Positions 10,184 through 55,995 of a DNA stretch of 64,000 nucleotides are shown here, piece by piece (position 1 is the first letter of the stretch; each line of letters opens with the position of its first letter). The notes under the pieces are model-generated. The model saw only the letters and a program-made list of their open reading frames with translations, was not told where the DNA came from and ran no database searches. Source of the stretch: an uncultured Gammaproteobacteria bacterium (lineage in GTDB: Bacteria > Patescibacteriota > Patescibacteriia > Magasanikbacterales > GWA2-37-8); contig CAYHBZ010000001.1 in NCBI GenBank assembly GCA_964355175.1, positions 304,523 to 368,522 on the forward strand, read 5' to 3'. The position numbers were made by a program, and so were the translations under genes.

Positions 10184-11734
<1,551 letters not shown>

Positions 11735-11836
11735 TAAAAAAAGAGAATGATAAGCTCGGAAAAATTCCGAACTATTATTTGTTTTGTTGTTGAATAGACA
11801 GATTTTTAAATATATAAATTTTACTTTATATACTTA

Positions 11837-12039: not shown

Positions 12040-12068
12040 ATAATAGCATAAGGTAAAAACCCTGTCAA
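12040..12068 (-). promoter_or_regulatory. Sigma-70-type promoter for the 16S rRNA unit
   Basis: The minus strand reads TTGACA (12068-12063), a 17-nt spacer, then TATTAT (12045-12040). It lies about 300 nt upstream of the 16S 5' end. Confidence 0.55.
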
Positions 12069-12088
12069 GGGCGGAAAAATGGCTTGGT

Positions 12089-12919: not shown

Positions 12920-15900
12920 TTATTTTACATTGAAATCAAAGCTATTCTCGGCAAGCACCACATTCTTGCTATCGAGTACTTTCACTTTTGCAGTGTAGGT
13001 ACCGGTAGCTAATTTCTTGCTCAAAGAGCTGGTAGCATTGAATTTAACGGCTTGACCTTTGGATAGCGTGCGGGTTCCGTCAACCTCACCCACTACTTTG
13101 CCATTGGCATCTACTACCTGGCGAACGATTTTTACTTTTACTGGTTTACCAGTTTCGTTCTTATAGGAGTAGGTGTACTTCACAGCACTGCCTGGTTTAT
13201 AATCAACTTTTAATCCGGTGATCACCACTTTGGAATCTGGATTATTGGTAGAAATTGAAGGTGGAGGCAGAGGTTTCTTTACAGTTACATCAAAGCTGTT
13301 TTCACCCAAAAGCTTATTTTTGGAATCCATTACTTTAACTTTGATAGTGTAGTTGCCGTCAGCCAATTTACTGCTTAGTAAATTGCTAGCGCTTGACTTA
13401 AAGGTCTTGCCTTTAGCAATCGAAGCGCTGCTATTTACCTGAGCCACTACTTTACCATTAGCATCGAGCACCTGGCGTGCTACTTTAATCTTTAAAGTAG
13501 CACTATTTTCATTCTTAAAGGAATAAGTGTAAGCAACTGAGCTGTTTGGAACATATTGCAATTTCTTTACTGGTAATATCACCAACTTGGAACCAGGATT
13601 GGAAAGAGTAAAGATTGTTACATTGGAAGAATTAGAGGATCCTACATTGGAAGATTCAGGTAAAGTGGTTAGAGCAGAAGCTTCTTTTAAACCTACAGTT
13701 ACTTGATAAATGGTGCTTAAAGCTCCAGTAGCTGAACGGAATCTGATGTTTAGTGTCTTTTGACCATCACCGGCAGACAACGCAAATACCTTGGTAGTGG
13801 CGTATAGTTCCCACACAGCGCCTACGAAAGCAGAGTCTTCGGAGATTATCATATCTTTAGCGTTGAAAGCTGAAAGATTGATAGTGATATTTCTAGAAGA
13901 TACTGAGGAAGGATTACCTGGTAAGCTGACGGAAACTTTCGAAGGAGCCGAACCAGCACCACTGGTAACACCACCACCGCCGCCGCTTGATCCACTACTA
14001 ACACTTACAGTGTTGCCAGTAAAGGTAGCGGAGTCAGATCCGGTATCAGTAGAATCTTTACTATCGGTAAAGGCAAGAGAAACAGTACCGTTTCCAGAGA
14101 CCTGGAACAATCCATCATTATTTGTTTTAGCACTAGCTACAGAGAAAATATTACCACTGCTTTGGAAGATACCGGTACTAGCACCAGTTTCAGTCAAAGT
14201 GATTGTTTCAGAGTCACTATAAGTATCGGAAGTGACAGTTACAGTCATAGTATCAGCAGAAGTAGTCAGGTTGGCGTCAGTATCTACTACTTTCAAATAC
14301 ACAGAACTAGCGGCAGTAGCATAGGTACTAGCGGCAGTACCAGCACCGTCTACGAAGTCAACCGAGGCAAGTGGGTGAACAATAGCGCCAGTTTCAGTGA
14401 CTGTACCAGTATTAGTAAAGGTGCCAGGAGCGTATAGAGTGTAGCTAGAACCGATAGTCAAAGAACCGGCATTGGTAATACTATCAGTAGAAGTGGTGTT
14501 ACCGGCCAAAGTATAGGTGCCGGCACCAAGAACTAAGCCCCAATATCTTTCAGCTGCTGGGGTTACAGAACCAGTACCAGTGTATCTTACAGTAGAGCTG
14601 GCCGAAGTAAATGTACCACTGTTAACAAAAGCGGTAGTACTGCTAGGGAAAGTCAAGGTAAAACTAGAACCATTTAAAGTCTTGCCGGAATTAATTGTAA
14701 GCACATTACTGACAGTGGTCGAACCAGACAAGGTGCCAGATGTGCCGTTGTTAACAACTAAATTCCAGTAAGTGGTGGAGGCGATGGTGGAGGTGGCACC
14801 GGAGAAGACTACAGTGGAGGTGCTGGCAGTGAAGGTACCGTTGCTTAATAATGGAGTGCCTGTACCGGTGAAGGTTAGGGTCTTGCCATTGGCGTCTAAA
14901 GTTTTTCCAGAGTTAATGGTTAAGACATTGCTGACGGTGGTGTAGCCACCTAATGTACCGGCAGTGCCGTTATCTACAGTCAAATTGTAATAGGTGGTGG
15001 AGGCAATAGTAGCAGTAGCACCGGAATAGACGACAATGGAGGTGCTGGCAGTGAAGGTACCGTTATTAACTAATGGGATACCGGTACCACTTAGAGTAAG
15101 AGTATAACTGCTTGCATCTAAAACCTTGCTGGCATTAACAGTTAGGACATTGCTGACTGTAGTGGAACCAGTTAAGAGGGCAGTCCCGGCGTTGTTAATA
15201 ACCAAATTAAAGTAAGTTGTGGAGGCAACGTCGGGTCCTGTAACACTATTTGAATAGGTAAAGGTAGAACTACCGGCGTTAAATGTGCCGTTATTAATAA
15301 ACGTAGAAGCGTTGTTACCTGTAACTTCTAAAGTACTTGTACCAGCATTAAAAACCGCGCCGCTGTTAATTCTGATACCAGTATTCCCTCCTGCTTGCAA
15401 TCCACCGTATACGGTTGAGCTAGCTGAATCAACCGTCACAGTATAAAAGGTACCGGAGGCCATATTTACACCATTACCAGTATATCTAATAAGTAAATTA
15501 CTAAAATTTGAAGCACCCGTATTATTAACAAACGGAGTTCCTGTGGCAGCTAAAGTAAGATTTTCAATACCTGGCTCCAAGATCGAAGGGGTACCCACAG
15601 TAAATAAATTATTTACTGTAGTACTACCTGTAATAGTGTTGGAAGTGGCACCATTCAAAGTCAAGTTGTAGTAGGTGGTAGAAGCAACGTTGGCGGTGGC
15701 ACCGGAGAAGACTACGGTAGAGGTACTGGCGGTGAAGGTACCGTTGCGTAAAAACGGAGTGCTGGTACCGGTCAATGCCAGAGTATAGCCGTTGGCATCC
15801 AAAGATTTAGTGGAGCTAACAGTAAGTACATTGGTGGTGGTCACATTACCGGCTAAAGTACCGGCAGTGCTGATTAATAGGTTGTAGTAGGAAGCAGAGG

Positions 15901-17338
15901 TGATTGGTTGGGTACTACCACCACCGTAGACCACAGTCGAAGTGCTGGCAGTAAAGGTACCACTTTGTGTAAATGGTGTGATACCTAACAAACTGATCGT
16001 GTATCCATTGGCGTCCAATACAGCGCCACTGCTAATTACAAGATTGTTCATTTCTACTATACCCGCCAATACGGCGGCAGTTGAATCGATTTGTAGACCG
16101 TAGTAGGTAAGGTTAGCGGCAACATTAGTAGCGCCGACACCGGAATATCTGACTACACCATTACTGGTAAGAGTACCAGTTTTAACAAGCGGAGTACCAG
16201 TGCCAGATAAATTCAAAGTGAAGCTAGAAGTATCGAGTGTCTTGCTGGCATTAATAGTCAATACACTACTGACAGTAGTAGAGCCAGACAGTGTACCTGA
16301 GGTGCCATTATCAACAGTCAAATTATAATAGGTGGTGGAGGCGATGGTGGCAGTAGCACCGGAGTATTTAACGGTAGAACCGCTTGGAACAAAAGTACCA
16401 TTTCGCACAAATGGAGTGCTCGTACCAGGCAAATTTATTGTACTTCCTGAATGGCCTGTTAAACTACCTGAGCTACCTATAGTAAGAATATTAGTAGTAG
16501 TAACATTAGAAGTTCCTGCTGTAGACAAAGTTACAGATCCATTTATAGTTAAATTATAAGGCACAAATCTACCTGAAGTTATACCACTATCACCAATTAA
16601 CTTTCCAGTACCAGTCATTGTTACAGTACCTGAAGTTTGAATCAAAGTACCTGGTGATAATATACTTCCTCCAACATTTAGATTAAAGGTAGATAAATCA
16701 AAAACTCTCAGTGAATTAACAGTAAGATCGTTGGTAGTTGTAACACTACTACCAAGCGTGGTATCATCGGCAATAGTAAGGTTGTAAAAATTTATTGATC
16801 CAGGGCCGCTAATAGTTTTAGTAAGACCGGACATCGTGAGAGTACCAACTGTTTGGCTAAGAGTAGTAGTGACATTAACATTACCAGACACATTAATTGT
16901 TCCAGTGGCGTTAAATGCAGTTCCGCCTAATCTCAGATCAACAACAGCCAAAGTACCGCCTACCTGAAAAGTACCGGCGTCTTGTGCAAAACTACCAGTG
17001 CCAGTAAGGGTTACGCCTGAATTAATATTAATAGTTCCGGTATATGTAGAATCCATTGATATGCCGGCAGTAGTTGTACTGACATCAAAAACAGCATTGG
17101 TAGTAGTTCTAGCTCCATTAAAAAACAAATCTTTACCGGTCAGAGTAGTACACGCTGCACCAACTCCACCGATAGTATCTTCCCAATTAGTAAGAGTTGA
17201 AGCCAGCTGAGAACTGCTCGCAGTCCAAGTACAAAAAGCCGCACTTGCCTGCTGACCAAAAAACATTGAGGAGAGCAGAAGTGCTGACCCCACTAAGAGT
17301 AGTTTAGACCTACTCAGAAATGACACATTCGTATTCAT
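12920..17338 (-). CDS. Giant secreted repeat protein (1472 aa), probably a beta-helix-type adhesin, with two C-terminal Ig-like modules
   Basis: The protein has a signal-like N-terminus (LLLVGSALLLSSMFFGQQASA). About 70-75-aa T/S/G/N-rich units recur many times (…TTVSNVLTINSGKTLDANGKTLTFTGTGTPL..NGTFTASTSTVV(Y/F)SGAT.TIASTTYYNLTV.NGT…). Two C-terminal modules of about 110 aa are also repeated (…YTYS(F/Y)KNE…KVKV(M/L)DSKN…ENSFD). Confidence 0.85.
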   Translation of the reverse strand: MNTNVSFLSRSKLLLVGSALLLSSMFFGQQASAAFCTWTASSSQLASTLTNWEDTIGGVGAACTTLTGKDLFFNGARTTTNAVFDVSTTTAGISMDSTYTGTININSGVTLTGTGSFAQDAGTFQVGGTLAVVDLRLGGTAFNATGTINVSGNVNVTTTLSQTVGTLTMSGLTKTISGPGSINFYNLTIADDTTLGSSVTTTNDLTVNSLRVFDLSTFNLNVGGSILSPGTLIQTSGTVTMTGTGKLIGDSGITSGRFVPYNLTINGSVTLSTAGTSNVTTTNILTIGSSGSLTGHSGSTINLPGTSTPFVRNGTFVPSGSTVKYSGATATIASTTYYNLTVDNGTSGTLSGSTTVSSVLTINASKTLDTSSFTLNLSGTGTPLVKTGTLTSNGVVRYSGVGATNVAANLTYYGLQIDSTAAVLAGIVEMNNLVISSGAVLDANGYTISLLGITPFTQSGTFTASTSTVVYGGGSTQPITSASYYNLLISTAGTLAGNVTTTNVLTVSSTKSLDANGYTLALTGTSTPFLRNGTFTASTSTVVFSGATANVASTTYYNLTLNGATSNTITGSTTVNNLFTVGTPSILEPGIENLTLAATGTPFVNNTGASNFSNLLIRYTGNGVNMASGTFYTVTVDSASSTVYGGLQAGGNTGIRINSGAVFNAGTSTLEVTGNNASTFINNGTFNAGSSTFTYSNSVTGPDVASTTYFNLVINNAGTALLTGSTTVSNVLTVNASKVLDASSYTLTLSGTGIPLVNNGTFTASTSIVVYSGATATIASTTYYNLTVDNGTAGTLGGYTTVSNVLTINSGKTLDANGKTLTFTGTGTPLLSNGTFTASTSTVVFSGATSTIASTTYWNLVVNNGTSGTLSGSTTVSNVLTINSGKTLNGSSFTLTFPSSTTAFVNSGTFTSASSTVRYTGTGSVTPAAERYWGLVLGAGTYTLAGNTTSTDSITNAGSLTIGSSYTLYAPGTFTNTGTVTETGAIVHPLASVDFVDGAGTAASTYATAASSVYLKVVDTDANLTTSADTMTVTVTSDTYSDSETITLTETGASTGIFQSSGNIFSVASAKTNNDGLFQVSGNGTVSLAFTDSKDSTDTGSDSATFTGNTVSVSSGSSGGGGGVTSGAGSAPSKVSVSLPGNPSSVSSRNITINLSAFNAKDMIISEDSAFVGAVWELYATTKVFALSAGDGQKTLNIRFRSATGALSTIYQVTVGLKEASALTTLPESSNVGSSNSSNVTIFTLSNPGSKLVILPVKKLQYVPNSSVAYTYSFKNENSATLKIKVARQVLDANGKVVAQVNSSASIAKGKTFKSSASNLLSSKLADGNYTIKVKVMDSKNKLLGENSFDVTVKKPLPPPSISTNNPDSKVVITGLKVDYKPGSAVKYTYSYKNETGKPVKVKIVRQVVDANGKVVGEVDGTRTLSKGQAVKFNATSSLSKKLATGTYTAKVKVLDSKNVVLAENSFDFNVK
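14450..16600 (-). repeat. Degenerate in-frame tandem repeats (unit about 220 nt) within the 1472-aa gene
   Basis: Recurring nucleotide blocks are visible, for example ggtggtggaggc(g/a)at(g/a)gt...gcaccggag(t/a)a...gtgaaggtaccgtt near 14770, 14990, 15670 and 16330. Confidence 0.6.
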
Positions 17339-22865: not shown

Positions 22866-23462
22866 ATGAATAACGACATTAAATCCCAGATACTTATTCC
22901 GACCGTTATTGAAAAAACCAGCTACGGCGAACGTGCCTACGATATCTATTCTCGCTTGCTTATAGATCGCATTATCTTCCTCGGCCAAGCGATCGACGAT
23001 CATGTGGCCAATATTGTAATCGCTCAATTGTTATTCTTGGAAAATCAAGACCCTAGCAAAGATATCAAAATATATATCAATTCCCCAGGAGGATCTGTAT
23101 CCGCCGGCATGGCCATCTACGACACCATGAAATATATCAAAGCCGATGTATCTACTATTTGTATCGGCATGGCCGCCAGTATGGCCGCCGTCTTGCTCGC
23201 ATCTGGCGCCAAAGGCAAACGCATGATTCTGCCCAACGCTGAAGTGATGATTCACCAAGTAATGGGCGGCATGGAAGGCCAAGCCAGTGATATCAAAATC
23301 CACGCTGAACGGATCCTACGCATGAAACAATCTCTGAATAAAATTTTGGCTGAACACACTGGTCAAGATATAAAAAAAGTAGAACAAGACACCGACCGTG
23401 ATAATTTTATGATTGCCAAAGACGCCGTCGCTTACGGCCTAGTAGACAAAATTGTTGAATAA
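22866..23462 (+). CDS. clpP: ATP-dependent Clp protease proteolytic subunit
   Basis: [35 protein letters not shown] and [11 protein letters not shown] (catalytic Ser) together with MIHQ (catalytic His) identify ClpP. Confidence 0.95.
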
Positions 23463-23483: not shown

Positions 23484-23507
23484 ATACCCAAAATTGGGTA
23501 TTTTTTG
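23484..23507 (+). terminator. Intrinsic terminator after clpP
   Basis: atacccaaaattgggtat forms a hairpin (23484-23501) that is followed by ttttt. Confidence 0.6.
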
Positions 23508-23517
23508 TTTTACCCCC

Positions 23518-23546
23518 TTGACAAGATCCTCATTCTATGCTATACT
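23518..23546 (+). promoter_or_regulatory. Consensus promoter with no downstream plus-strand ORF
   Basis: TTGACA (23518-23523), a 17-nt spacer, then TATACT (23541-23546). Confidence 0.6.
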
Positions 23547-23552
23547 TATGAG

Positions 23553-23803
23553 TTGCTAAAAGTGAAGCACCCCGATTCGTTCGGGAACAGGATAAATAAG
23601 CATAGCCGCCCCATAAGGGTATTAGGATCCAGGTCAGTGCAAATTATCGATTCACAACAAGTAAGTATAATTAGCACCGACCCGTATCCACTACAAGCAT
23701 GGGGATGTGTTGACGGATAGAACTGGCTTCGGCTCGTCTTCTCCCTTGACACATCTTCTTGGGTGCGGTTTCCGGGGAATTAATTTTCCCCACAAAAACA
23801 ACA
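23553..23803 (+). ncRNA. Candidate structured non-coding RNA of unknown class
   Basis: The region is bounded by a consensus promoter and a strong terminator. Internal hairpins include cccga/tcggg (23571-23585) and a 16-position stem at 23632-23647 / 23667-23682. Further pairs are gatgtgt/acacatc (23704-23710 / 23749-23755) and ggggaa/ttcccc (23774-23791). The region is more GC-rich than other intergenic DNA in the window. The two ORF-track ORFs here do not look protein-like. Confidence 0.4.
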
Positions 23804-23835
23804 CTGCCTACTTCAAAAAAGTAGGCAGTTTTTTT
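23804..23835. terminator. Bidirectional intrinsic terminator
   Basis: ctgcctac (23804-23811) pairs with gtaggcag (23821-23828). A T-run follows on the plus strand and a T-rich tract follows on the minus strand. It would serve both the ncRNA candidate and the VanW-like gene. Confidence 0.6.
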
Positions 23836-23854
23836 ATTTTTATTTAATTTATTA

Positions 23855-25846
23855 CTAATTGTTTATCGGCACTGGTTCGCTAGGTGTAGCTCCTTGAGCT
23901 TCTGTCGCACCAACCGCCGGAGCTGCACAAGTTTCGCCTGGTTTGCACTCTGGCACCGCGTCCACACCCACCATACAAATTTTTGGCAACGGTCGATAGT
24001 AGCTATCAAACACACGATCTATTTTTTCACCAGCTGGCGTAACTCTACTATAAGTAAAACTGGCCACCGCGCCGCGAAAAGCATTTTGACATTTTACTTC
24101 GCCAGGTTTTAATTTAGCACTTTTTATTTCTTGTGGCTCGCCCGATGGAATCCATTTTTTTACGAGCGGATGAGTGTACGACCCATTGCGACCATCCGGT
24201 TTACCCCAGAGCGTGAAGATAAGTTGTTGTTTTTTATAATCAATCTCGGTCTGCAACAACAAATAATGTCCGGTATCATTTTTAAATTTTAAATCGAGTG
24301 ACGGCTCATACAAAGTAGCATCGGTACCGGGATTGCCATTCACCGGATCGGAATAATACCCGACCACCAAAGAATGATTTTGACGTTGGGTAATATCCAT
24401 ACCAGAATTCATGGCCATACGGAAAAGAGTGGTACCGATCTGACACATACCACCACCTATTTCATTTTTTATTTCGTTTCCTTTAATCACCGCTTCCGGC
24501 AGAAAACCATTTTCCGCCGTAAACGGACCAGCATAGCGGATAGCGGAAAATTCTTCATCTGGTTTTATAAGCGCACCATTTAGACGTGCCACGGCGTGGG
24601 CGATATTTTTGATACGATTGGTATGGCTATCTTTAAAAGTAGAATATCCCACCCCTACCACTTCTTCAATACCAAGCTCATTGGCATTGGCCATTTTTAC
24701 TACCGGCTCCGCCACATCTACAGTAAGCGCTACGGTTTTATTGGCTTGAGCCGGATGATAATTTCTATCTTTAAAAGCGGCATTGAGATCAGCATAAGTT
24801 TTTTCAGCATTCAAAGTAAGACCCGTTTGACTGGCTTGAAATTCCTTGACTTTACCTTTTTCATCCACGGCAAATTTGGCATCTTGCGCCGATCTATCTA
24901 CTAGGGGGCGCAGGCTCTCCAAATAAGTTTTTACTTTTTCTTGATTTAAAATAAATATCGGCTGTTGATTTTCATCCTTGGTCACTTCAATCCAGCCGCC
25001 ATATTGCGCCAAGGTCAAAGGCCAATCACGACGAGCTTTGGTCTGCGGATCCACATAATTTAATCCTAGATCACCATATCCCAAAACAGCCGCTAAATTT
25101 TCACTGGCTTTTTGGGCGTCAGAAAATTTTATGGCCGGTTCAAATTGTTTGGCGGTGACCGGTATATTTCCGAGATAGAGCTGACTCAAATTTGTTTGAA
25201 TTTGTTCAATAATTTTTTCATACTCAAATTCCAGCCCAGACTGCTCGGACACCACCGAATAATTCAACGGTGAAAAAGAAGTAATAAAAATATTAGCGTT
25301 GCGCGGTTTGTCTACTTTGTCGTCCAGATTATCTTTAAGCAGGCTCATTAAATTTAGCCAGTCTACTTTTACCGGCACATTCAAATTAGTATTTTGAACA
25401 CGATAATACAGCGGTCCAAACAAACGCGCCGGCCAACTACCCCCGCGGCCAAGTCCGTAAGCCGCCTGCCACAAAGCATAGCTGTCCAGCTTCACCAATT
25501 CAGCTGCCTCGCCGCCGCTGGCGACAGTATCAATACGCAAAACGGTTTTTTTATCGTTCACATTCACATCCAAATTTATACCCTCTTTGGACAATCTATT
25601 GTTGGTAGTCTCAATAAAATTATTTAAATCAGAGCGTGTCATCGAGCCAAGATGATAATTTCCGGCATAAACTCCCGGATAAATTTTATCCTGATAAACT
25701 TTCAAATAAGTAGCCGTTGCCCCCGAAACCACACCAAGTACCGCGACCAAAACCAAAAAAAATACCGCGACTATTTTTAGCGGACGCTTCCAAGGTTTTG
25801 CCTCCACCGATTCGCTCGGAAAGGTCTGTTTGATATCTTCATTCAT
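23855..25846 (-). CDS. VanW-family membrane-anchored protein
   Basis: The protein has an N-terminal TM segment. GGGMCQIGTTLFRMAMNSGMDITQRQNHS matches the VanW core motif. The tail is Cys-containing. Confidence 0.65.
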   Translation of the reverse strand: MNEDIKQTFPSESVEAKPWKRPLKIVAVFFLVLVAVLGVVSGATATYLKVYQDKIYPGVYAGNYHLGSMTRSDLNNFIETTNNRLSKEGINLDVNVNDKKTVLRIDTVASGGEAAELVKLDSYALWQAAYGLGRGGSWPARLFGPLYYRVQNTNLNVPVKVDWLNLMSLLKDNLDDKVDKPRNANIFITSFSPLNYSVVSEQSGLEFEYEKIIEQIQTNLSQLYLGNIPVTAKQFEPAIKFSDAQKASENLAAVLGYGDLGLNYVDPQTKARRDWPLTLAQYGGWIEVTKDENQQPIFILNQEKVKTYLESLRPLVDRSAQDAKFAVDEKGKVKEFQASQTGLTLNAEKTYADLNAAFKDRNYHPAQANKTVALTVDVAEPVVKMANANELGIEEVVGVGYSTFKDSHTNRIKNIAHAVARLNGALIKPDEEFSAIRYAGPFTAENGFLPEAVIKGNEIKNEIGGGMCQIGTTLFRMAMNSGMDITQRQNHSLVVGYYSDPVNGNPGTDATLYEPSLDLKFKNDTGHYLLLQTEIDYKKQQLIFTLWGKPDGRNGSYTHPLVKKWIPSGEPQEIKSAKLKPGEVKCQNAFRGAVASFTYSRVTPAGEKIDRVFDSYYRPLPKICMVGVDAVPECKPGETCAAPAVGATEAQGATPSEPVPINN

Positions 25847-28779: not shown

Positions 28780-28861
28780 AAAATATGTAAATTGTGCTAT
28801 AATTGTACCAGAAAAATAAAAATAGTCAACCCATCTGCAATTATCAACTTAGCTATTGATT

Positions 28862-30445
28862 ATGAAAAAAATACTTTTTTGGCTGTTATTGGTACTAAAT
28901 TTAGTCTATCCGCTGACCATTATATCCAATACCCTAGACGGTGATTTCGGTTGGCATCTGCGTTTTGGACAGGATATCCACACGCAGAGCTCTTTTCCCT
29001 ACCTCGATACCTACACCTATACAAAATATGGCGAACCTTGGACCAATCACGAGTGGGGCGGCGACTGGATTATTTACCAGGTTTATTCTCATCTAGGATA
29101 CTTCTGGATCAATATCATCGTGGCACTGGCCGGCGCTCTCGCTTTTTGGATTATCGGCAAAGCATTTATTAAAAAACCTGGAGTTTCTTTTTTGTTTTTT
29201 GCTCTGGCCTGCCAGATGGCCGTGTACCATATTTTCGCGCCACGTCTGGCGATGTTTTCGCAATTATTTGCCGCTTTGATTATTTTAATAATTGAAAAAT
29301 ATTCCTCCCGTCCGCGCGCGCTATACCTGATACCGTTTATTATCTGGCTGTGGTCCGTTTTGCACGGTAGCTGGATTTTGGGCTTTATTATTATGAATAT
29401 TTATTTGGGTTGTGCCGTGCTTCCATATATTGTGGGCCAAAAATACCAAAAATATTTTAATGAAGAAAAAAAGCCGCTTACTTTTATTTATCAGCTAATA
29501 GGGATTCAATTGCTGGCGGCAGTGCTAATTATAATCAATCCCTACGGCATAAAAATTTGGCAAGAAATCTTTCAGTATTTTGGACAAAATTACTACAAAG
29601 CCCACATTAGCGAATGGACACCGAGCTATGCTTATCCGGTGTTTCCAAAAATTTTGATTTTGCAGACCATTACCTTAGTATTGGTAATATACGGCTTTAT
29701 CAAACGCAAAGTAAAATTTACTTACCTGACTTTTTTCCTGGCCTTTTTTTACGCGGCCATGATGTACAAACGCCAAGCGATTTTTACCGCCCTGCTTTCC
29801 GCCCCAATATTATATTATACCGCCACTTTTATGCGGGAACAGATGACCAATTTAAAATTTTATAACTTTTTTATAAAACAAAAAGAAAAATTCTATTTTG
29901 TCGGAATAATTATCACGATACTTTTGATAATATTCTATGCCCGCCAAATGCACTATACCGATGATCCTTGGAATGACAAAATTCTTTCCTATAATAACGC
30001 TCCGCCCTACGAAGCGACCATATTTTTACAAAACTATACCGCGGGAAAATCAATAAAATTATTCAATGAATTCAGTTGGGGTGGATTTTTAAATTGGATG
30101 TTGCCAAATGCTCTGGTATATCTGGACGGCCGCGGCAGTGCCACCTGGATGCACGACAAAAATACCAGCATGCTACAACACTATATCGAACTCAAAGAAG
30201 AAGATAATGCCGTAAAAATAATTGAAGATACCGGGGCGGACTATATCATGTTACGCTATCCCAAATTTGTCATTAGCGGCATTCCCAGCTTCGCCGACCG
30301 ACATTTATTTGGTGATAATTTCAAAGAATATTTCGTGAATCATGAAGAAAAACTGAGGGAGAAAATTGACAATAGCGGTCACTGGAAAAAAATATATTCA
30401 GACAATCGCGCTAACATCTGGCAAAAAATTAATCCCGCGCCATAA
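28862..30445 (+). CDS. Polytopic integral membrane protein, possibly a GT-C-type glycosyltransferase
   Basis: More than 10 hydrophobic segments are followed by a soluble C-terminal domain. The start is placed at the ATG at 28862 (MKKILF). The functional call is only a guess based on architecture. Confidence 0.6.
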   Translation: MKKILFWLLLVLNLVYPLTIISNTLDGDFGWHLRFGQDIHTQSSFPYLDTYTYTKYGEPWTNHEWGGDWIIYQVYSHLGYFWINIIVALAGALAFWIIGKAFIKKPGVSFLFFALACQMAVYHIFAPRLAMFSQLFAALIILIIEKYSSRPRALYLIPFIIWLWSVLHGSWILGFIIMNIYLGCAVLPYIVGQKYQKYFNEEKKPLTFIYQLIGIQLLAAVLIIINPYGIKIWQEIFQYFGQNYYKAHISEWTPSYAYPVFPKILILQTITLVLVIYGFIKRKVKFTYLTFFLAFFYAAMMYKRQAIFTALLSAPILYYTATFMREQMTNLKFYNFFIKQKEKFYFVGIIITILLIIFYARQMHYTDDPWNDKILSYNNAPPYEATIFLQNYTAGKSIKLFNEFSWGGFLNWMLPNALVYLDGRGSATWMHDKNTSMLQHYIELKEEDNAVKIIEDTGADYIMLRYPKFVISGIPSFADRHLFGDNFKEYFVNHEEKLREKIDNSGHWKKIYSDNRANIWQKINPAP

Positions 30446-31157
30446 CCAGTCCATACACTTTTTGCGCTCCGGCGGATTTTAATACACGCGCACACTCCTG
30501 CATCGTGGCCCCGCTCGTGAAAACATCATCCACCAAAATAATATTTTTAGAGAGCGCGTCACGACCTTGCCAAACAAAAGCGCCATTTAGATTGGACAGG
30601 CGCTCAGCTCGATTTAATTTGGCTTGCTGTTTGGTAAATTTTATTCTCTGTAAATTGAGATCATCCAACTGAATACCCGGATGATCTTTTTTTAATACTT
30701 GAAAAATATTTTGCGCGATTAATTGCGCCTGATTGAATCCGCGCTCACGCCGACGCCGGCTATGTAGCGGCACGGGCACAAGTGTGGCATCACAGCTAGG
30801 CAGATTACCGGCTTGCCAAATAGTATTCAAAAATTCTGTCGTGATTTGAAGCCAAAGATTATTGATATCCGTAACTAGATTATACTTAAATTTTTTTATC
30901 AATCCACTCACCGCTCTATTATTTTGATAATTAAAAAAGGCGGCCACAGCTTCTAGACTGCTGGCCGCCTGACAATTGAGACAATTTTTGCCGTTTAAAT
31001 TTTTCAGATGACAAACTGGACAATAAAATTCTCCGCCGTTAAAACTTTGTATTATACAACTATCACACCACCACACACCCTCTTGATCGCAGCCCAAACA
31101 AAATATCGGAAACAAACAATCCTTTATAAATTGCACTAGCTCCCCTCCCCTAAACAT
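30429..31157 (-). CDS. comFC: ComF-family competence protein (ComFC, phosphoribosyltransferase domain)
   Basis: N-terminal Cys clusters are present (CLGCDQEG..C, CPVCH...CLNC). RGFNQAQLIA and ILVDDVFTSGATMQECARVLKSAGA form the PRTase motif. The start lies 4 nt after the upstream stop. Confidence 0.8.
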   Translation of the reverse strand: MFRGGELVQFIKDCLFPIFCLGCDQEGVWWCDSCIIQSFNGGEFYCPVCHLKNLNGKNCLNCQAASSLEAVAAFFNYQNNRAVSGLIKKFKYNLVTDINNLWLQITTEFLNTIWQAGNLPSCDATLVPVPLHSRRRRERGFNQAQLIAQNIFQVLKKDHPGIQLDDLNLQRIKFTKQQAKLNRAERLSNLNGAFVWQGRDALSKNIILVDDVFTSGATMQECARVLKSAGAQKVYGLVMARD

Positions 31158-31160
31158 ATT

Positions 31161-31757
31161 TTATTTTACCATTGTAAAATTATCTACAAACCAAGTGTCG
31201 CCACTTTTTACCAAGCTCACTTTGGCCTGAGCGTCTTTTTGAGTAATCACTCCGCCTTTTTCTTCAGTAATTTTTACCTGCAAATCTACCGTCGCGCTGA
31301 CATCAGTCCAAGCGGATATTTTGGCGCTATAGGCCTCCACACTCACGGCATAAAAATTTGGACTATTAGCGGGAATATTAGCCGGAATTTTGGCACTTAA
31401 TTGTTTCCAGTAGCTGTCGGTGGCCAAACTTTCCACATCCATCATATTCTGATAGCGGCTTTCCGAAGAATATGAATTCAATCTTTCCACGAAAATTTTA
31501 GCAAAATTTTGAGCGGCCTTTTGCTGAGTTTCCAAAGTGCTGGTTTTTGGCACATTTACATTCTGTAGATTGGTGACTGGCAAAGTGGTGCCGGCAGGAT
31601 TACTTTCAGAGTCGCCAGGCAATACTGTATTACCAGCATTATCTACTGCCGGAGCATTTTTATTTTTGGAGCGCACATACAAAAATATACTGACACCCAA
31701 AATAAATAATACGATTAAACTAACTACGATAAAAATACGGGCGCGTAATGACATCAT
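31161..31757 (-). CDS. Bitopic membrane protein with a C-terminal alpha+beta domain, possibly VirB8-like (NTF2-like)
   Basis: A single N-terminal TM segment (IFIVVSLIVLFILGVSIFLYV) is followed by a low-complexity linker and a globular domain of about 120 aa. The gene lies immediately downstream of VirB4. The VirB8 assignment rests only on architecture and context. Confidence 0.5.
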   Translation of the reverse strand: MMSLRARIFIVVSLIVLFILGVSIFLYVRSKNKNAPAVDNAGNTVLPGDSESNPAGTTLPVTNLQNVNVPKTSTLETQQKAAQNFAKIFVERLNSYSSESRYQNMMDVESLATDSYWKQLSAKIPANIPANSPNFYAVSVEAYSAKISAWTDVSATVDLQVKITEEKGGVITQKDAQAKVSLVKSGDTWFVDNFTMVK

Positions 31758-31766
31758 ACAAAATTA

Positions 31767-33635
31767 TTATTTAGTTTGATTTTCAAATTCTTGTTTGGCG
31801 CGTTCGATCTCAAGCAACTGCTGCGGGTTGGTGGTCACCAGCTGATCTTCGGTATACGAAGCCACGATCTTGATAGCGGCATGTTTGAGACCGGCAAAAA
31901 ATATTCCTTCACCCGGAGCACTCTCCAACAATAAATATTTTTCACTATCCGTAAGCATGAAAACTTTTTGAATGTTGTCCACGGCGGCCGGAGATTGGCG
32001 GAGCAACAATTGCAAAGCCGAATTGGTCACAATCGCCTGTCCGTATTGGGAATGCAAGAAATCATTTACATCCTGCGTAATAGTCGTGACACCCAAATAA
32101 TATTTACGACAGCGTTTCACCAAAGCAAAAATAAATCTGGCGGAATCTTCGTGTTGCATCAGCCACCAGGCTTCATCAATTACGAGCACGCGCTTGCGAC
32201 GCTCGGAGCGCACCGTGTTCCAAATATAATTGATAATCGCGTAAATAGCGAGCGGACGCAATTCATCTTCCAAATCACGCACACTATACACCACCAACTG
32301 ATTTTTCATTTCCACATTGGTTGGCGAATTGAATAGTCCACTAAAAGTACCTTCGGTATATTTTTTCAATTTTAATACCAATTCGTTCGAGCCTTCCATA
32401 CCTTCGAGCACTTCCTGCAAATCTTGCATGATTGGCGCTTCGACAGTATTGAGATCCACACCGGATACGATATCTTTTTTGGCGTAAGTTTCGATGAGCG
32501 CTCTATCGATTACCGAATCCTGCTCAGTAGTAATACCACCAAGCATAATACGGAGTAATCCTTTCACAGTAATAACCGCGCTACGAATAATATCGTCGAC
32601 AGACAAATCCTGCTCCATTGGGCGAGGCAGATCAAATGGATTTACTTTACTCTCACTGCTCAAAGAAATATTAATATAAGTACCACCGACCGCGTCAGAG
32701 AGATGTTTATATTCCATTTCCGGATCAATCACAATCACTTCCAGGCCCATCATGAGAGAGCGCAAAATTTCCAATTTAATGGCATAGCTTTTACCGGCAC
32801 CGGAAGTAGCAAATACTACCATATTGGCATTCTGCATCGAAAAACGATCAAACAAAATCAAACTATTGTTGTGACGATTGATTCCGTACAAGATACCATT
32901 ATCGGAAGTAAGCTCGGCAGAAATAAATGGAAAAGACGCGGCAATCGGCGATGAATTCATGTTGTAGGAAATCATCAATTCATCATTGCACAGCGGCAAA
33001 GTAGAATTAAAACCTTGCTCAGCTTGATACAATACTTTGCGACTCATGATCAATTTACTGCCAAAAATACTTTCGATATCTTCGGATAACTGATCCAATT
33101 TTTCTTTATTTTTGGTATAAATAGTGACATAAAAAGCAAACTGAAAAAAGTGCTCTGTCCCCTGGGTTAGATTGTCGCGCAAGCCTTCAATATCACGCAA
33201 AGCGGTCTCACGAATTGGATCACGCGGCGCGCCCTTTTCGGCATCGGCGCTAATCTGCGCTTCGAGCGCACCTACTTTATTTTTTAATTGTTTCAAAATA
33301 ATTTCGGCTTTAATCGGATAAAAGAACATTGAAATATCCATATTCACCGACAAACCAATCACGGGAGAGCTCCAACCCACGGAAATATAACGCGGATAAT
33401 TCATGATGAAAAGCGTACGACAAAAAGTGGTGCCAAGCTGGATAAAATTGGACTCAATATTAAAAGCCGCCGGCGCGATAATATCACGCAACGACACCAC
33501 GCCCTCACGATAGACCTGCTCTTCTTGCAGAGTAATGAGTTCGGCAGCGGTAGCTTTTTCTAACTTGCTTTTATCTTTACTACCCAAACTCGCTTTATCG
33601 TTTTGTTTGGCAATGAATTGTGGTTTAAAGGCCAT
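31767..33635 (-). CDS. virB4: VirB4/TraC/PrgJ-family T4SS ATPase, C-terminal 622-aa part
   Basis: DIIAPAAFNIESNFIQLG..FCRTLFIMNYPRYISVGW is the VirB4 middle domain. VVFATSGAGKSYAIKLE is Walker A and RVLVIDEAWWLM is Walker B. TQDVNDF is also present. Confidence 0.85.
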   Translation of the reverse strand: MAFKPQFIAKQNDKASLGSKDKSKLEKATAAELITLQEEQVYREGVVSLRDIIAPAAFNIESNFIQLGTTFCRTLFIMNYPRYISVGWSSPVIGLSVNMDISMFFYPIKAEIILKQLKNKVGALEAQISADAEKGAPRDPIRETALRDIEGLRDNLTQGTEHFFQFAFYVTIYTKNKEKLDQLSEDIESIFGSKLIMSRKVLYQAEQGFNSTLPLCNDELMISYNMNSSPIAASFPFISAELTSDNGILYGINRHNNSLILFDRFSMQNANMVVFATSGAGKSYAIKLEILRSLMMGLEVIVIDPEMEYKHLSDAVGGTYINISLSSESKVNPFDLPRPMEQDLSVDDIIRSAVITVKGLLRIMLGGITTEQDSVIDRALIETYAKKDIVSGVDLNTVEAPIMQDLQEVLEGMEGSNELVLKLKKYTEGTFSGLFNSPTNVEMKNQLVVYSVRDLEDELRPLAIYAIINYIWNTVRSERRKRVLVIDEAWWLMQHEDSARFIFALVKRCRKYYLGVTTITQDVNDFLHSQYGQAIVTNSALQLLLRQSPAAVDNIQKVFMLTDSEKYLLLESAPGEGIFFAGLKHAAIKIVASYTEDQLVTTNPQQLLEIERAKQEFENQTK

Positions 33636-33638
33636 ATT

Positions 33639-34325
33639 TTATTCTTGTTCAATTTGCATCTTATCCATTGGCGCCATACGCTCGGTGAGAGCGATATCGG
33701 GATTATAAGTAGAGTACAATACTTCTACCAGAGACTGAGTGTCGAGGCGCACCACTTCCAGACCAATTCCGCGCAAACCAGACTCTACTTGGCGCACACG
33801 CTGATCTAAATCATATTTGCGTTTGGTGAATCTTTCCGCTTTTAGTTTTACCGTCACGGCCGGATGAAAAACTTCGCTCAAACGCGCCCAAAAACTTTTT
33901 TGTTTATTGGACAAAGGATCATAAGGCACCACTACATAAAAATTTTTGCTCATAATCTCCCCCATCTCGACAAGCTCCGACACAAAAGATCGATAGTCGG
34001 CAATCTGCGCGCGCAACAATTCATTGGTCTGTTCGCGCTCGCGTTTGAGCAAATCTTCCAGGTACGGCTTGATATATAATTCACGCGACTGAATTACCAC
34101 CTGCAAAGGGTGGTCCAAACCGTTGAGAAAACTCACATAAGCGGATACGATAGCGTTTTGTTCGTCTTCATTTTTCAAAGCAAAATTAATGCTCGATACT
34201 AACATTATAGCACGCATCGTGCCATCTTTCATCACCACGGTATCCTGTCTGATTTCTGAAACAGACAAAAATCTTTGGGCGGATGGTATGCTGGTTTTTT
34301 TTGCTGCCGCTTTTTTATTCTTCAT
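33639..34325 (-). CDS. VirB4 N-terminal segment encoded as a separate 228-aa ORF
   Basis: DTVVMKDGTMRAIMLVSSINFALKNEDEQNAIVSAYVSFLNGLDHPLQVVIQS follows, as I recall it, the N-terminal pattern of Gram-positive VirB4 proteins (Tn916 Orf16/PrgJ type). It is separated from the 622-aa ORF by TAA-AAT-ATG in the same frame. Confidence 0.55.
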   Translation of the reverse strand: MKNKKAAAKKTSIPSAQRFLSVSEIRQDTVVMKDGTMRAIMLVSSINFALKNEDEQNAIVSAYVSFLNGLDHPLQVVIQSRELYIKPYLEDLLKREREQTNELLRAQIADYRSFVSELVEMGEIMSKNFYVVVPYDPLSNKQKSFWARLSEVFHPAVTVKLKAERFTKRKYDLDQRVRQVESGLRGIGLEVVRLDTQSLVEVLYSTYNPDIALTERMAPMDKMQIEQE

Positions 34326-34331
34326 ATAAAA

Positions 34332-34784
34332 TTAATCTTCCGGTTTATAATAACCGCCGGTATTTACCGCCAAGGCCAAATCGCGCAGACGGTTATAGGA
34401 TAAATTTGGCACCTCCGCGATCTTTTCTACTAGCACCACCGTTTCCATTTTGCGCAATTGTTCCAATTCTTCTTTGGTGTCCATTTTATACCAGATGCGT
34501 CGACTCGGTCGGCGCAGTGTCTGAAACAAATTCAATAAAAAATAATGAAAAGACTGTCCGTTGATTTTTACAAAAGCCAAGATCAGAGAAAAGCTACCTA
34601 GAGTGGCTAGAGAGAAAATGAACAAAGCCATGTCCGCCAATTTAAAAGTAATAAATAAAATCAGTCCGGCAATTAGCAAGATCAAAAACTGACGCGTAGT
34701 CACCGGTCCAAAAATTTTATCCTCAACGTCAATAAATTGTGGCACTACAAACTGTTCCATATTAAATAGCCAACTCTTTTTCAA
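34332..34784 (-). CDS. PrgI-family (VirB3-like) small membrane protein
   Basis: VPQFIDVEDKIFGPVTTRQFLILLIAGLILFITF followed by a second TM segment is the PrgI-family pattern. The gene lies directly upstream of VirB4, as in Gram-positive T4SS loci. The likely start is the internal MEQF. Confidence 0.6.
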   Translation of the reverse strand: MKKSWLFNMEQFVVPQFIDVEDKIFGPVTTRQFLILLIAGLILFITFKLADMALFIFSLATLGSFSLILAFVKINGQSFHYFLLNLFQTLRRPSRRIWYKMDTKEELEQLRKMETVVLVEKIAEVPNLSYNRLRDLALAVNTGGYYKPED

Positions 34785-35901
34785 AATTAATTAAAGCTTC
34801 AATTTCCGCTAAAGAAATTTTATCTCTTTCTCCCAGCACTCCGGATAGTGGTCGTCTCTGCTCTATCGCCTCATCCACCGCGCTAATATAAGATTGATAC
34901 AGAGGACTATTATGCCAAGCGTCCCAGGATTTCATAAACAGCAGATAGGATTCTTCTTTCAAGTTCAAAAATTTTTGTTTCAGGCGCTCAGCGGCATCGA
35001 CCGGCTTGGAAGACAGGCGGCGAAAATCTACCAGATTGAAAAATTGAATCTCGTCGAGAGGCCCCATGGCCATCGGTTTGCTATGCACATCGTGCATCAT
35101 CGCTCTAGGAGTCACCGAAGCCGCGCGCATTGGCGCAATATTTTGGGCCGGTTTCTGCTCTGTTTTTTTTGCGATCAAATCTTCGATCGGCGCCGAAGCT
35201 ACGCCGGCACTGAAAATAATTTTATCTACAATATTTTCTTTCACTTCCTTTTTTTCTACTTTCGGCAAGTAAGTGGTTGGTTTGGATTTTTCGGTCAATT
35301 CTCTAGCCTGAGTTTCAGTCAATCCCAATCCACCGTCTTTTATAGAACGGCCACAAGCATCCAGAGTATCAGGTTCACTGCGAATATCTTTTAGACGGAG
35401 CTGAACGACACTACGCAAGCGACTATCAATTTGAGGTGAAACTTTAAATGATAAACTGGAAATGATTTTGGAAACTTGATCGGTGCGATTGGATGCTACG
35501 GTAGTTTTGGCATGTTCACTGTCTGGGACTTCTTCATGGAGCAATGATTTCAAATCTTCATTTTTCAAAACTGGCTTTCCTGGCACTTTTTTATCGTCAT
35601 CCTGAGCGACTTTATTGTCATCCCGAACGGATGTGAGGGATCTTTCCGGCCTGTTAGATTCCTCGCTTACACTCGGAATGACAGTATTCACCTTTGGAAC
35701 GACAGGTGCTAAAACAGGCTTCACAGGTGCGGACACAGGCACAGCCGGTGTTGGCGCCACTGGTGTCGGTGCAACTGTTGGTACAGCCACTGTCGGTGTA
35801 GACGCGCCGGCCTGGCGTTTTTTTATTTCAGTCAAAGAAACCCTCTCGGTCGTGCCGTCGGATTTTTTTACCGTAATCATGATTTGATTATTGTCTGGCA
35901 T
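34762..35901 (-). CDS. Hypothetical protein (379 aa) with a Pro/Val/Ala-rich segment and an embedded palindromic element
   Basis: The ORF is part of the operon and its ends overlap or abut the neighbouring genes. The repeat-derived peptide VIPSVSEESNRPERSLTSVRDDNKVAQDDD is embedded in it. I recognise no domain. Confidence 0.6.
   Translation of the reverse strand: MPDNNQIMITVKKSDGTTERVSLTEIKKRQAGASTPTVAVPTVAPTPVAPTPAVPVSAPVKPVLAPVVPKVNTVIPSVSEESNRPERSLTSVRDDNKVAQDDDKKVPGKPVLKNEDLKSLLHEEVPDSEHAKTTVASNRTDQVSKIISSLSFKVSPQIDSRLRSVVQLRLKDIRSEPDTLDACGRSIKDGGLGLTETQARELTEKSKPTTYLPKVEKKEVKENIVDKIIFSAGVASAPIEDLIAKKTEQKPAQNIAPMRAASVTPRAMMHDVHSKPMAMGPLDEIQFFNLVDFRRLSSKPVDAAERLKQKFLNLKEESYLLFMKSWDAWHNSPLYQSYISAVDEAIEQRRPLSGVLGERDKISLAEIEALINFEKELAI
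35596..35682 (-). repeat. Palindromic element copy C (35617-35682) plus an adjacent half-copy (35596-35610), in frame within the 379-aa ORF
   Basis: The full copy is gtcatcccgaacggatgtgagggatctttccggcctgttagattcctcgcttacactcggaatgac. The half-copy gtcatcctgagcgac matches the left arm of copy A at 13 of 15 positions. Confidence 0.6.
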
Positions 35902-35903
35902 AT

Positions 35904-36914
35904 TTATAAGCTATGTTGATGTAAACCAATCACCAGGCGTAATAATTCTCTGAGCCAATTCTGCACGGCTTGAGTATTTGGTTCATTTTGATAAAAATCG
36001 GCAATAAATTTTTCTTGAGCAAAAGTTTTAATATCCGCTTCATAAACCAAAGCAAATACTTGGTGAACAGCTTCCTGAACTTTCACGCCAGAAACAGCTT
36101 CGGAAGTGGTCGGTATAAATTCTCCATTATAATCCAAAGTACGAATCAAACCATCAAATTCTTTATCCAATTCTTGGGCATTCAAGCCATTATAAGCCAT
36201 CAACAAACGATCGCGCACTGGCACACCTACCACCACCGATTGATAAAAATAATTTTGTAATAAAAATTTATGATCAGATATTGATAAATCCCTAAAATAT
36301 GCCCAGGCCATTTGTATTATTAGACTACTGACCAAAACTTCCAGCCAATAAAACTGTGCACCTTCGTAATCGTCTTCCTTGGTAGCCGCAGGCAAAGAAT
36401 TTAATAATTTTCCGACATAACTAGTTGAAGCCGCGCCGGTAATTATTTGCCTCAAGGTATAGACAAATAAAATATCATCATAATAAGGCAACTTGCCGGC
36501 CAAAATCAAACTAATTTCTTCATCGTTATACGGCTTGATTTCTTTCAGATCAGGCGACAAATTATCAGTAGCGGCTGATACCAAAAAAATCTGTGAAGAT
36601 AAGCTATTTAACAACTCTTGATCGCTGGGGTTGGCTATAAAACTTTTGATAAGATCGACGCTGATTAAACTTATTAAAACCTTATCAATTTTTACAAGCA
36701 GTCCATTACTGGTATTTTGCAATTGTTTGGATAGATTTTCGGCCACACCATAGATACCCTTGGAATTTGGAGTAAACAGCTCTAGACGATCCTCGGCGGC
36801 GACCAATTCATTCAAAGCCAAGACAACCTCATTTTGTGGCTGAGAATAAAAGGTATATAATTTTTGCGCTCCAAGCTTTAAGGCCATATTTAAGAAAATA
36901 TTTTTTCGTTCCAA
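35904..36914 (-). CDS. Hypothetical soluble protein (336 aa) in the T4SS-like operon
   Basis: The ORF has no TM segment and a helical-looking composition. It overlaps the upstream gene by 25 nt. Confidence 0.6.
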   Translation of the reverse strand: MERKNIFLNMALKLGAQKLYTFYSQPQNEVVLALNELVAAEDRLELFTPNSKGIYGVAENLSKQLQNTSNGLLVKIDKVLISLISVDLIKSFIANPSDQELLNSLSSQIFLVSAATDNLSPDLKEIKPYNDEEISLILAGKLPYYDDILFVYTLRQIITGAASTSYVGKLLNSLPAATKEDDYEGAQFYWLEVLVSSLIIQMAWAYFRDLSISDHKFLLQNYFYQSVVVGVPVRDRLLMAYNGLNAQELDKEFDGLIRTLDYNGEFIPTTSEAVSGVKVQEAVHQVFALVYEADIKTFAQEKFIADFYQNEPNTQAVQNWLRELLRLVIGLHQHSL

Positions 36915-37963: not shown

Positions 37964-37992
37964 ACTACCTGTTTATTTTATTGATCAAAATT

Positions 37993-51705: not shown

Positions 51706-51718
51706 ATTAGGGTTTGGG

Positions 51719-52381: not shown

Positions 52382-52406
52382 TAATTATACCACAGAAACC
52401 ACATTA

Positions 52407-53258: not shown

Positions 53259-53259
53259 A

Positions 53260-53859: not shown

Positions 53860-53860
53860 A

Positions 53861-54937: not shown

Positions 54938-54938
54938 A

Positions 54939-55436: not shown

Positions 55437-55544
55437 AGATAATCTATAGTTTAGCCTATAAAAACTCTTTTGACAAATATTGACCTTTTATATGATATAC
55501 GACTGTGCTATGATAGAAATAATTAATTTTTAACCATATAACAT

Positions 55545-55937: not shown

Positions 55938-55954
55938 AATAAATAAAAATAAAA

Positions 55955-55983
55955 GCAGCCAATCAATTGGCTGCTTTTTTTCT
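55955..55983. terminator. Bidirectional intrinsic terminator
   Basis: gcagccaat pairs with attggctgc (55955-55974). It is flanked by an A-run and a T-run and sits between the convergent doxX and the 2283-aa gene. Confidence 0.6.
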
Positions 55984-55995
55984 TTTTTTTAATAA

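Follow-up and report, generated by a model that had tools for sequence, protein, structure and literature searches.

Does the gap between a clpP gene and a VanW-like gene in a Patescibacteria-type genome encode an RNA of its own and, if so, of what kind? The question arises at positions 23518-23835 of a 64,000-nucleotide (64-kb) stretch of contig CAYHBZ010000001.1 (assembly GCA_964355175.1), the whole of which we call the window. An earlier note on this DNA had proposed an orphan structured RNA between a perfect promoter and a strong terminator, perhaps of an undescribed class. Judged by sequence analysis and comparison with related genomes, these positions do hold a genuine small RNA gene with transcription of its own. 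It represents what comparison identifies as a new RNA family without detectable relation to described families; the word new applies to the family only. Patescibacteria are a major part of bacterial diversity whose very small genomes miss many standard factors, and their non-coding RNAs have, to our knowledge, hardly been described.

The RNA gene and its conserved core

The gene is delimited by a promoter and a terminator, from which its transcript can be predicted:

23516-23546, plus strand: promoter, CC-TTGACA, with the -35 hexamer at 23518-23523, a 17-nt spacer carrying TG at 23538-23539, and the -10 hexamer TATACT at 23541-23546
23553-23836, plus strand: predicted primary transcript, about 283 nt, placed from the promoter and the terminator
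23803-23836, plus strand: intrinsic terminator, an 11-12 bp stem (23803-23829) followed by T7

The proposed TTGACA-17-TATACT promoter (23518-23546) is near-consensus, scoring 11/12 with a TG extension, and is the top site of a 2-kb scan. The stricter form CYTTGACA-N17-TANNNT occurs at two sites in the 64-kb window, against 0.08 expected: one is the RNA promoter, and the other lies at 12040-12070 on the minus strand, about 300 nt 5' of the 16S rRNA gene. Both carry TATGCTAT ahead of the -10 hexamer. Since this type of promoter otherwise stands only before the 16S rRNA gene in the window, we regard it as a promoter of the stable-RNA type, and from the promoter the RNA is probably highly expressed and abundant. 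Nearly all homologous copies are likewise preceded by a perfect TTGACA at 17-nt spacing to TAnnnT.

The 5' end of the transcript was placed about 6-7 nt past the -10 hexamer and the 3' end inside the T-run, both being predictions. The predicted transcript folds with a minimum free energy (MFE) of -98.1 kcal/mol (z = -5.9 against dinucleotide shuffles). The terminator is as strong as had been claimed, T-run included, and is bidirectional, so that it also ends the convergent VanW-like gene. Some 250 nt without a credible open reading frame (ORF) had been described between these signals, and the description holds. Only two ORFs are present, one of 71 aa that starts upstream of the -35 hexamer and a GTG-initiated one of 46 aa that crosses the terminator, and no reading frame is open in more than 50% of 123 distinct homologous cores on either strand. 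A coding role was rejected because these ORFs are at odds with both transcription signals and the homologues preserve no reading frame.

The minus strand likewise folds well (z = -6.75). However, invariant G.U pairs (93/93, 73/93 and 90/93 sequences) would become A.C mismatches on that strand, and a covariance model of the family scores it at no more than 26 bits, against about 100 bits for the plus strand. Together with the orientation of promoter and terminator, the strand-specific G.U pairs and the model scores point to a plus-strand RNA, and a minus-strand RNA was rejected on the same grounds. The locus thus shows the general marks of an independent small RNA (sRNA) gene: a promoter, a terminator, no ORF and a covarying structure on one strand.

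Homologues were sought among 80 loci from a ClpP-anchored scan in which each GTDB species was represented by a single genome. In eight of these loci nhmmer detected the 3' half of the RNA (window about 23680-23780) but not the 5' 125 nt, and the covariance model added a ninth, L017; all nine lie on Patescibacteria-type contigs. In metagenomes, the pattern CACNACAAGCATGGRG-N(38-68)-CTTCTTG matched at least 120 contigs, and the covariance model recognizes 98 of 100 and 20 of 22 of the listed metagenome loci at 53-101 bits, over a G+C range of 0.36 to 0.62. Of the 120 metagenome pattern matches listed, only L094 and L154 fail the model; their spacers are 67 and 39 nt long, and they were discarded as chance matches. 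As a specificity control, 33 relaxed-pattern matches in viral contigs were scored, and 32 fail the model; L203 alone passes. The comparison with relatives that the earlier note had called for was run, and conservation and covariation both proved strong (nine genomes, 118/120 listed contigs and one phage contig).

Judged by its absence near clpP in 14 other loci of the candidate phyla radiation (CPR), the family is confined to one clade and is not universal in the CPR. The clade includes Magasanikiibacteriota- and Uhrbacteria-type genomes. The ClpP of the window is 73-77% identical to ClpPs from metagenome-assembled genomes of Magasanikiibacteriota, Uhrbacteria and other Patescibacteria, and the gene content of the window is typical of this group. 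A side observation concerns L001, L002, L004, L006, L009 and L010, which are TPA_asm records titled 'uncultured Gammaproteobacteria bacterium'; they show the CPR-type order clpP-RNA-VanW, their ClpPs share 74-78% identity with the window ClpP, and their labels look wrong.

Only the 3' 90-100 nt are widely conserved. The earlier note was right to see a real RNA gene, but the conserved unit is this 3' part alone, an unbranched long hairpin at 23682-23768 composed of the following elements, all on the plus strand:

23682-23690: 5' strand of helix P1, CCGUAUCCA, pairing with 23760-23768
23691-23700: 10-nt bulge CUACAAGCAU, family consensus CGACAAGCAU, that is C(G/U)ACAAGCAU
23701-23713: 5' strand of helix P2, GGGGAUGUGUUGA, pairing with 23746-23758
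23715-23717 and 23742-23744: helix P3, GGA/UCC, from RNAalifold; consensus GGR/YCC
23722-23737: apical hairpin P4, AC-U-GGC[UUCG]GCU-C-GU, with its tetraloop at 23728-23731
23746-23758: 3' strand of P2, UUGACACAUCUUC, from RNAalifold and covariation
23759: unpaired U facing the 10-nt bulge, from RNAalifold
23760-23768: 3' strand of P1, UGGGUGCGG, from RNAalifold and covariation

From nine sequences RNAalifold already derives 30 pairs, and compensatory changes occur in 16. Covariation was computed on 93 distinct sequences, in which 94.1% of cells hold standard pairs, compared with 72.7% in column shuffles (0/500 reach the observed value) and 41-50% when the partners are slid by 1-3 columns. Both sides change in 23 of the 30 pairs (653 cells). 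The core alone folds to exactly the conserved structure.

Helix by helix, P1 is paired in 99.4% of cells (93 distinct sequences), and seven of its nine pairs vary on both sides, with up to five pair types per position. P2 is paired in 95.3% of cells and six of ten pairs vary on both sides; its first four pairs, G-C, G.U, R-U and G-C (GGRG/CUUC), are invariant. P3 is paired in 88% of cells, and its GG/CC is near-invariant though not fixed by the search pattern. The same applies to the step beneath the tetraloop, a near-invariant G.U (23725/23734) and G-C (23726/23733) within the apical consensus AC-N-GGY[UNCG]RCU-C-GU, whose alignment positions are conserved as G64 in 93/93, G65 in 92/93, C86 in 91/93 and U87 in 90/93. 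The apical closing pair covaries (C-G 60, U-A 22, A-U 5, G-C 4). The bulge is invariant in the nine genome loci that were found without the pattern, except for a G-to-U change at its second position in the lineage of the window, and the one bulge position that the metagenome pattern left free is G in 117/123 distinct cores among the listed matches. The arm formed by P2 to P4 measures 49-54 nt in 121/123 distinct listed copies, where the pattern permitted 38-68 nt.

This structure agrees in part with the helices listed earlier. The pairing gatgtgt/acacatc around a C(UUCG)G loop corresponds to P2 and P4 and is confirmed by covariation. The supposed ccccat/atgggg helix falls away: its AUGGGG belongs to the bulge and P2, and a CCCCAU partner is missing from most homologues. 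Four of the listed helices are present, but the list overlooked the closing helix P1 (23682-23690/23760-23768) and the invariant bulge (23691-23700).

Relation to described RNAs

Rfam 15 (4227 covariance models), run over the whole window at gathering thresholds, reported the 16S rRNA and three tRNAs only. At the locus itself, searched on both strands at E <= 10, nothing matched over the core, and matches fell only on two terminator hairpins (the trpB motif, for example, scored 31.7 bits, its threshold being 59). Ten homologous loci gave tRNAs only at gathering thresholds, and ten further ones gave no recurrent family at E <= 5. ARAGORN found three tRNAs and no tmRNA in the window. Rfam and ARAGORN thus agree with the earlier reader, who had found no signatures of RNase P RNA, tmRNA, signal recognition particle (SRP) RNA or 6S RNA, and the Rfam check on both strands, which returned no family, supports the proposal of an undescribed class. 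No description was found in the open-access literature either, including searches for the literal core sequence and the CPR content of the large motif-discovery papers.

In shape the RNA is closest to 4.5S RNA, and it fails the tests that define SRP, 6S, RNase P and tmRNA. Like the bacterial small SRP RNA (Bacteria_small_SRP, RF00169), it is a small, stable, single irregular hairpin of about 100-115 nt with a structural tetraloop at the apex and a conserved asymmetric loop in which a single 3' nucleotide faces many 5' ones. For 4.5S RNA to function, its apex and a distal site must lie a given distance apart, and the fixed arm length seen here recalls this requirement. SRP helix 8 is marked by a GNRA-type tetraloop and by the symmetric and asymmetric Ffh-binding loops (of GGAA...AGCAGC and GGAAGCAGC type). 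In contrast, the apex of the core is GGY-UNCG-RCU in 93 distinct sequences, with no GNRA loop and no Ffh loops; about 25 bp separate the apex from the main conserved loop, no motif of the GGAAGCAGC type occurs in or near the RNA, and no SRP covariance-model signal was obtained.

6S RNA (RF00013) is likewise an abundant regulator with a strong sigma-70-type promoter of its own and a rod shape interrupted by a single-stranded middle region. It differs in being about 180 nt long with a large two-stranded bubble that mimics an open promoter, whereas the loop of the core has 10 nt against 1 nt; in addition, the minimal forms of the present family measure about 125 nt, its sequence conservation is far higher, and no 6S model match was found. 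The RNA is a single hairpin with no match to RNase P models, in place of a multi-helix core with the P4 pseudoknot and CR-I to CR-V, and neither ARAGORN nor Rfam detects the tRNA-like domain and tag reading frame of a tmRNA. Nor does it resemble a cis-regulatory leader: in the window and most host loci it is followed by a terminator and/or a convergent gene, L203 being the exception.

The raiA motif RNA and OLE RNA share with this family their own promoter and terminator, covariation, invariant unpaired nucleotides, restriction to certain clades and the lack of a function when described. They show no similarity to it in sequence or structure and no Rfam match; the core is smaller, forms a single unbranched hairpin and occurs in Patescibacteria, not in Firmicutes or Actinobacteria. 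A further likeness concerns ribosomal protein S15, which recognizes a G.U/G-C step on 16S rRNA helix 22 and on its own mRNA. The apical invariant 5'-GG-3'/5'-CU-3' is such a step, and a second block, G-C/G.U/G.U/G-C, lies beside the bulge. The RNA has no three-way junction, gives no Rfam S15-leader signal and shows no link to rpsO; the resemblance extends to two base pairs and does not classify the RNA.

The family combines conservation in at least 118 listed contigs, an rRNA-like promoter, a 16-nt invariant block, covariation and one phage copy beside groES-groEL. A comparable combination of traits marked 6S, SRP, OLE and raiA RNAs before their functions were known. Its minimal form of about 125 nt offers a small, concrete target for biochemistry and for the mining of metatranscriptomes, and the family may explain some of the unannotated intergenic sequence in CPR genomes.

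Lineage-specific parts and genomic setting

Outside the core, the copy in the window carries additional structure, which is best described as lineage-specific decoration:

23553-23680, plus strand: lineage-specific 5' domain, a hairpin at 23571-23585 and a long irregular hairpin that includes 23632-23647/23667-23682
23774-23791, plus strand: hairpin P5, GGGGAA-UUAA-UUUUCCCC, found in a sub-lineage only

By nhmmer and blastn, the 5' 125 nt are common only to the near relatives L081, L090, L178 and L192, and the distance from the predicted start to the CAC of the core ranges from about 21 to about 340 nt among homologues. The cccga/tcggg hairpin (23571-23585) is indeed present, as a lineage-specific element. 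The 16-position stem at 23632-23647/23667-23682 forms 14/16 pairs and is compatible with P1, but outside the window it is restricted to three close relatives, with one compensatory change, in L192. The 5' UGCUAA (23554-23559) is able to pair with UUAGCA (23671-23676). The ggggaa/ttcccc hairpin is P5; its sequence varies and it recurs within a sub-lineage only. Hairpins of other sequence occupy the P5 site in L001, L005, L132, L134, L163, L195 and L202, and the minimal forms have no P5. In these minimal forms of about 125 nt (L148, L111, L093, L091), a prolonged P1 with a U-run behind it doubles as the terminator.

The 5' domain also offers the P1 3' strand (23760-23768) an alternative partner, GCCGCCCCA (23605-23613). 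With this pairing and without P1, the full-length MFE for the window copy is -98.1 kcal/mol, against -91.5 kcal/mol with P1 enforced, a difference of 6.6. The partner sequences are missing from most homologues, and on that ground we rejected this MFE pairing as the conserved fold. Among 64 distinct long forms, 11 show pairing between their 5' extension and the P1 3' strand at z < -2. The P1 5' strand recurs nearly unchanged, sometimes together with CACGAC, 60-150 nt upstream in L085, L110, L127, L142, L152 and L200, and in L085, L110 and L127 the repeat of strand plus CACGAC is identical at 14/14 positions. These second copies may act as a conformational switch or may be left over from a duplication.

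The immediate neighbours in the window are the following:

22866-23462, plus strand: clpP (Pfam CLP_protease), upstream of the RNA gene
23855-25846, minus strand: gene for a VanW-like protein with a PG_binding_4 domain, convergent with the RNA gene

A terminator-like hairpin of clpP itself, at about 23484-23507, was recognized by eye from the sequence and was not listed by the terminator scan. Homologous loci were examined within up to 15 kb of each RNA copy. In the usual setting, the RNA gene lies between convergent clpP and VanW-like genes, with DHH/DHHA1 and SMC genes on one side and an HSP20 gene on the other. The VanW-like gene adjoins the RNA in 99/129 listed homologous loci, the remainder being mostly truncated contigs. 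In about three quarters of loci the RNA gene is directed at the VanW-like gene, and in the others at clpP. The window has the order clpP> RNA> <VanW; the inverted order VanW> RNA> <clpP, promoter and terminator included, occurs in 18-24 loci and was verified base by base in L083-L085. A second context was found in about 8-11 loci (for example L158, L160, L199 and L200), where the RNA lies 3' of a NIF3-like and a RuvB gene in divergent orientation, and neither clpP nor a VanW-like gene is close by. The position between clpP and the VanW-like gene had thus been read correctly, but it reflects inherited gene order and does not establish a functional link. The neighbourhood looks like an inherited arrangement around a self-contained gene, not an operon.

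The phage copy lies on L203 (IMGVR_UViG_3300033066_000406; L203:2505-4638, 62.8 bits), a 37.9-kb contig from IMG/VR with genes for both terminase subunits (small and large), a ParB-methyltransferase and a protein that weakly matches portal proteins. The RNA copy keeps the G.U/G-C step, under a GAAA apical loop. A small ORF, groES and groEL follow directly 3' of the RNA, with no terminator in between, while no groEL was found near the RNA in the host loci. The phage groES-groEL and the host neighbours clpP and hsp20 hint at a link to protein quality control, the phage evidence being a single case.

Possible roles

We favour, tentatively and at somewhat short of an even chance, the interpretation that the gene encodes a stable, probably protein-binding RNA of an undescribed family, this role being inferred from the arrangement of conserved parts. 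The RNA would be transcribed from its own rRNA-type promoter and ended by the intrinsic terminator, and the functional unit would be the rod-like hairpin of about 90-100 nt with its upper arm of fixed length. Three invariant patches would serve as protein recognition surfaces: the bulge CGACAAGCAU with its flanking pairs, including the tandem G.U; the GGR/YCC helix; and the G.U/G-C step under the UNCG loop. The RNA could then act as the scaffold or regulator of an abundant ribonucleoprotein, with a lifestyle like that of 4.5S, 6S or raiA-type RNAs, and would not be antisense to its neighbours. We prefer protein binding because the identity of the pairs flanking the bulge is invariant, the arm length is fixed and there are a second and a third invariant patch, none of which a plain antisense seed needs.

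Several points weigh against this interpretation. The abundance of the RNA is read off the promoter alone, and the exclusion of a functional replacement for SRP or 6S RNA is one of anatomy only. The metagenome pattern fixes the bulge and CUUCUUG, and thus invariance is unbiased only in the 10 genome-derived copies. In 14 other CPR clpP loci, a larger model with filters off gave noise only. None of the neighbours ClpP, VanW-like, HSP20 and DHH/DHHA1 is an obvious RNA-binding protein. Lastly, the invariant single-stranded 10-mer also fits a base-pairing seed for an invariant target.

A more specific proposal, which we consider doubtful, is that this is the abundant housekeeping ribonucleoprotein RNA of one large CPR lineage and binds a core machine, for instance RNA polymerase, the proteostasis apparatus or the ribosome, whether complete or in assembly. 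It may compensate for protein factors missing from reduced genomes, and the alternative P1 pairing of the long forms would add regulation.

An unlikely alternative takes the bulge CGACAAGCAU(GG) as the seed of a trans-acting base-pairing sRNA, directed against a stable RNA or an invariant mRNA start (AUG occurs in the complement of the bulge). No other invariant single-stranded element is as long as the bulge, and a promoter and terminator of its own are what classical sRNAs have. By eye, CGACAAGCAUG (23691-23701) complements the universal 16S rRNA sequence CAUGCAAGUCG (window about 11680, minus strand) at 9/11 positions, the mismatches being two central A residues. A rough estimate, however, puts the number of such 9/11 rRNA matches expected by chance at about 0.5, and we judged the complementarity a coincidence on that ground. 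RNAduplex against 39 gene starts in the window gave a best value of -11.3 kcal/mol (8 bp, in an unrelated gene) and none that is convincing, and near-exact complements of the bulge number 4 in the window against 3.6 expected, one of the four being the locus itself. A seed would also leave the identity of the flanking pairs, the arm length and the apical G.U/G-C step unexplained, all of which protein binding accommodates.

It is less probable again, indeed distinctly so, that the RNA is a ligand or temperature sensor tied to protein quality control, whose alternative P1 pairings would switch its state; the output would be its own stability or read-through into neighbouring genes such as clpP, VanW/hsp20 or the phage groES-groEL genes. 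The case for a sensor is built from the proteostasis neighbours (clpP adjacent, hsp20 two genes off), from the sole phage copy, which stands without a terminator upstream of a small ORF, groES and groEL, and from the minimal forms, which embed the motif in a terminator. Many long forms carry a competing 5' copy of P1 (11/64 at z < -2, with three 14/14 repeats), and the alternative fold in the window is more stable by 6.6 kcal/mol. Yet the downstream gene in hosts is convergent or separated by a strong terminator, leaving no ORF in cis; the RNA is inverted relative to its neighbours in about a quarter of loci and also lies beside RuvB and NIF3-like genes, and the heat-shock link may be a matter of inherited order. 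The short forms have no competing strand, and the phage evidence is the one contig described above.

Slightly less likely still is a diverged equivalent of a known housekeeping RNA lying beyond the Rfam models, by shape SRP 4.5S RNA, or else 6S RNA as a decoy for RNA polymerase. The 4.5S-like hairpin, about 110 nt long and furnished with conserved asymmetric loops and a tetraloop, the rRNA-type promoter, and conservation across the clade in apparently single copy are what such an equivalent would show. No canonical SRP or 6S RNA was found in 191 kb of related sequence, a sample too small to inform. In the fetched loci, a search for the canonical SRP RNA motif found none, and a search for the Ffh M domain found it in L094 only, where it is canonical; L094 is not a member locus. 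Against such an equivalent, the helix-8 elements of SRP RNA (the GNRA-type tetraloop and the GGAAGCAGC-type loops) are absent, the SRP and 6S models are silent even at E <= 10, the loop of 10 nt against 1 nt is not a two-stranded, open-promoter-like bubble, and the minimal forms are just about 125 nt long.

Hardly credible at all is that there is no separate gene and that the stretch is a structured 3' tail or terminator region of clpP and the VanW-like gene, as the earlier note had allowed for in the form of an untranslated mRNA tail, or a DNA-level element: the position between two convergent genes, the bidirectional terminator and the well-folding minus strand (z = -6.75) would suit it, but it is contradicted by a consensus promoter of its own in nearly all copies, a terminator-like hairpin of clpP ahead of the RNA, strand-specific G.U pairs with a 70-80 bit difference between strands, and the occurrence of the RNA in both orientations and in other contexts.

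Some features of the window lie apart from the RNA gene. The 16S rRNA gene (10186-11741, minus strand) contains an insert of 36 nt close to model position 80. Between this gene and those for tRNA-Val and tRNA-Ile stand two protein genes, one for a PfkB-family kinase-cupin fusion and one for an epimerase, and the 64-kb window contains no 23S or 5S gene. A minus-strand cluster at 28856-42189 and 43756-62847 holds type-IV-secretion-like genes, among them a TraG/VirB4-type P-loop ATPase and a PrgI-family protein; a T4SS-pilin/Big_5 protein is encoded separately at 2710-4788. Three ORFs have no Pfam match, two of 1398 and 2649 aa in this type-IV-secretion-like cluster and one of 1472 aa at 12920-17338. 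The cluster also holds a very large ORF of 2283 aa.

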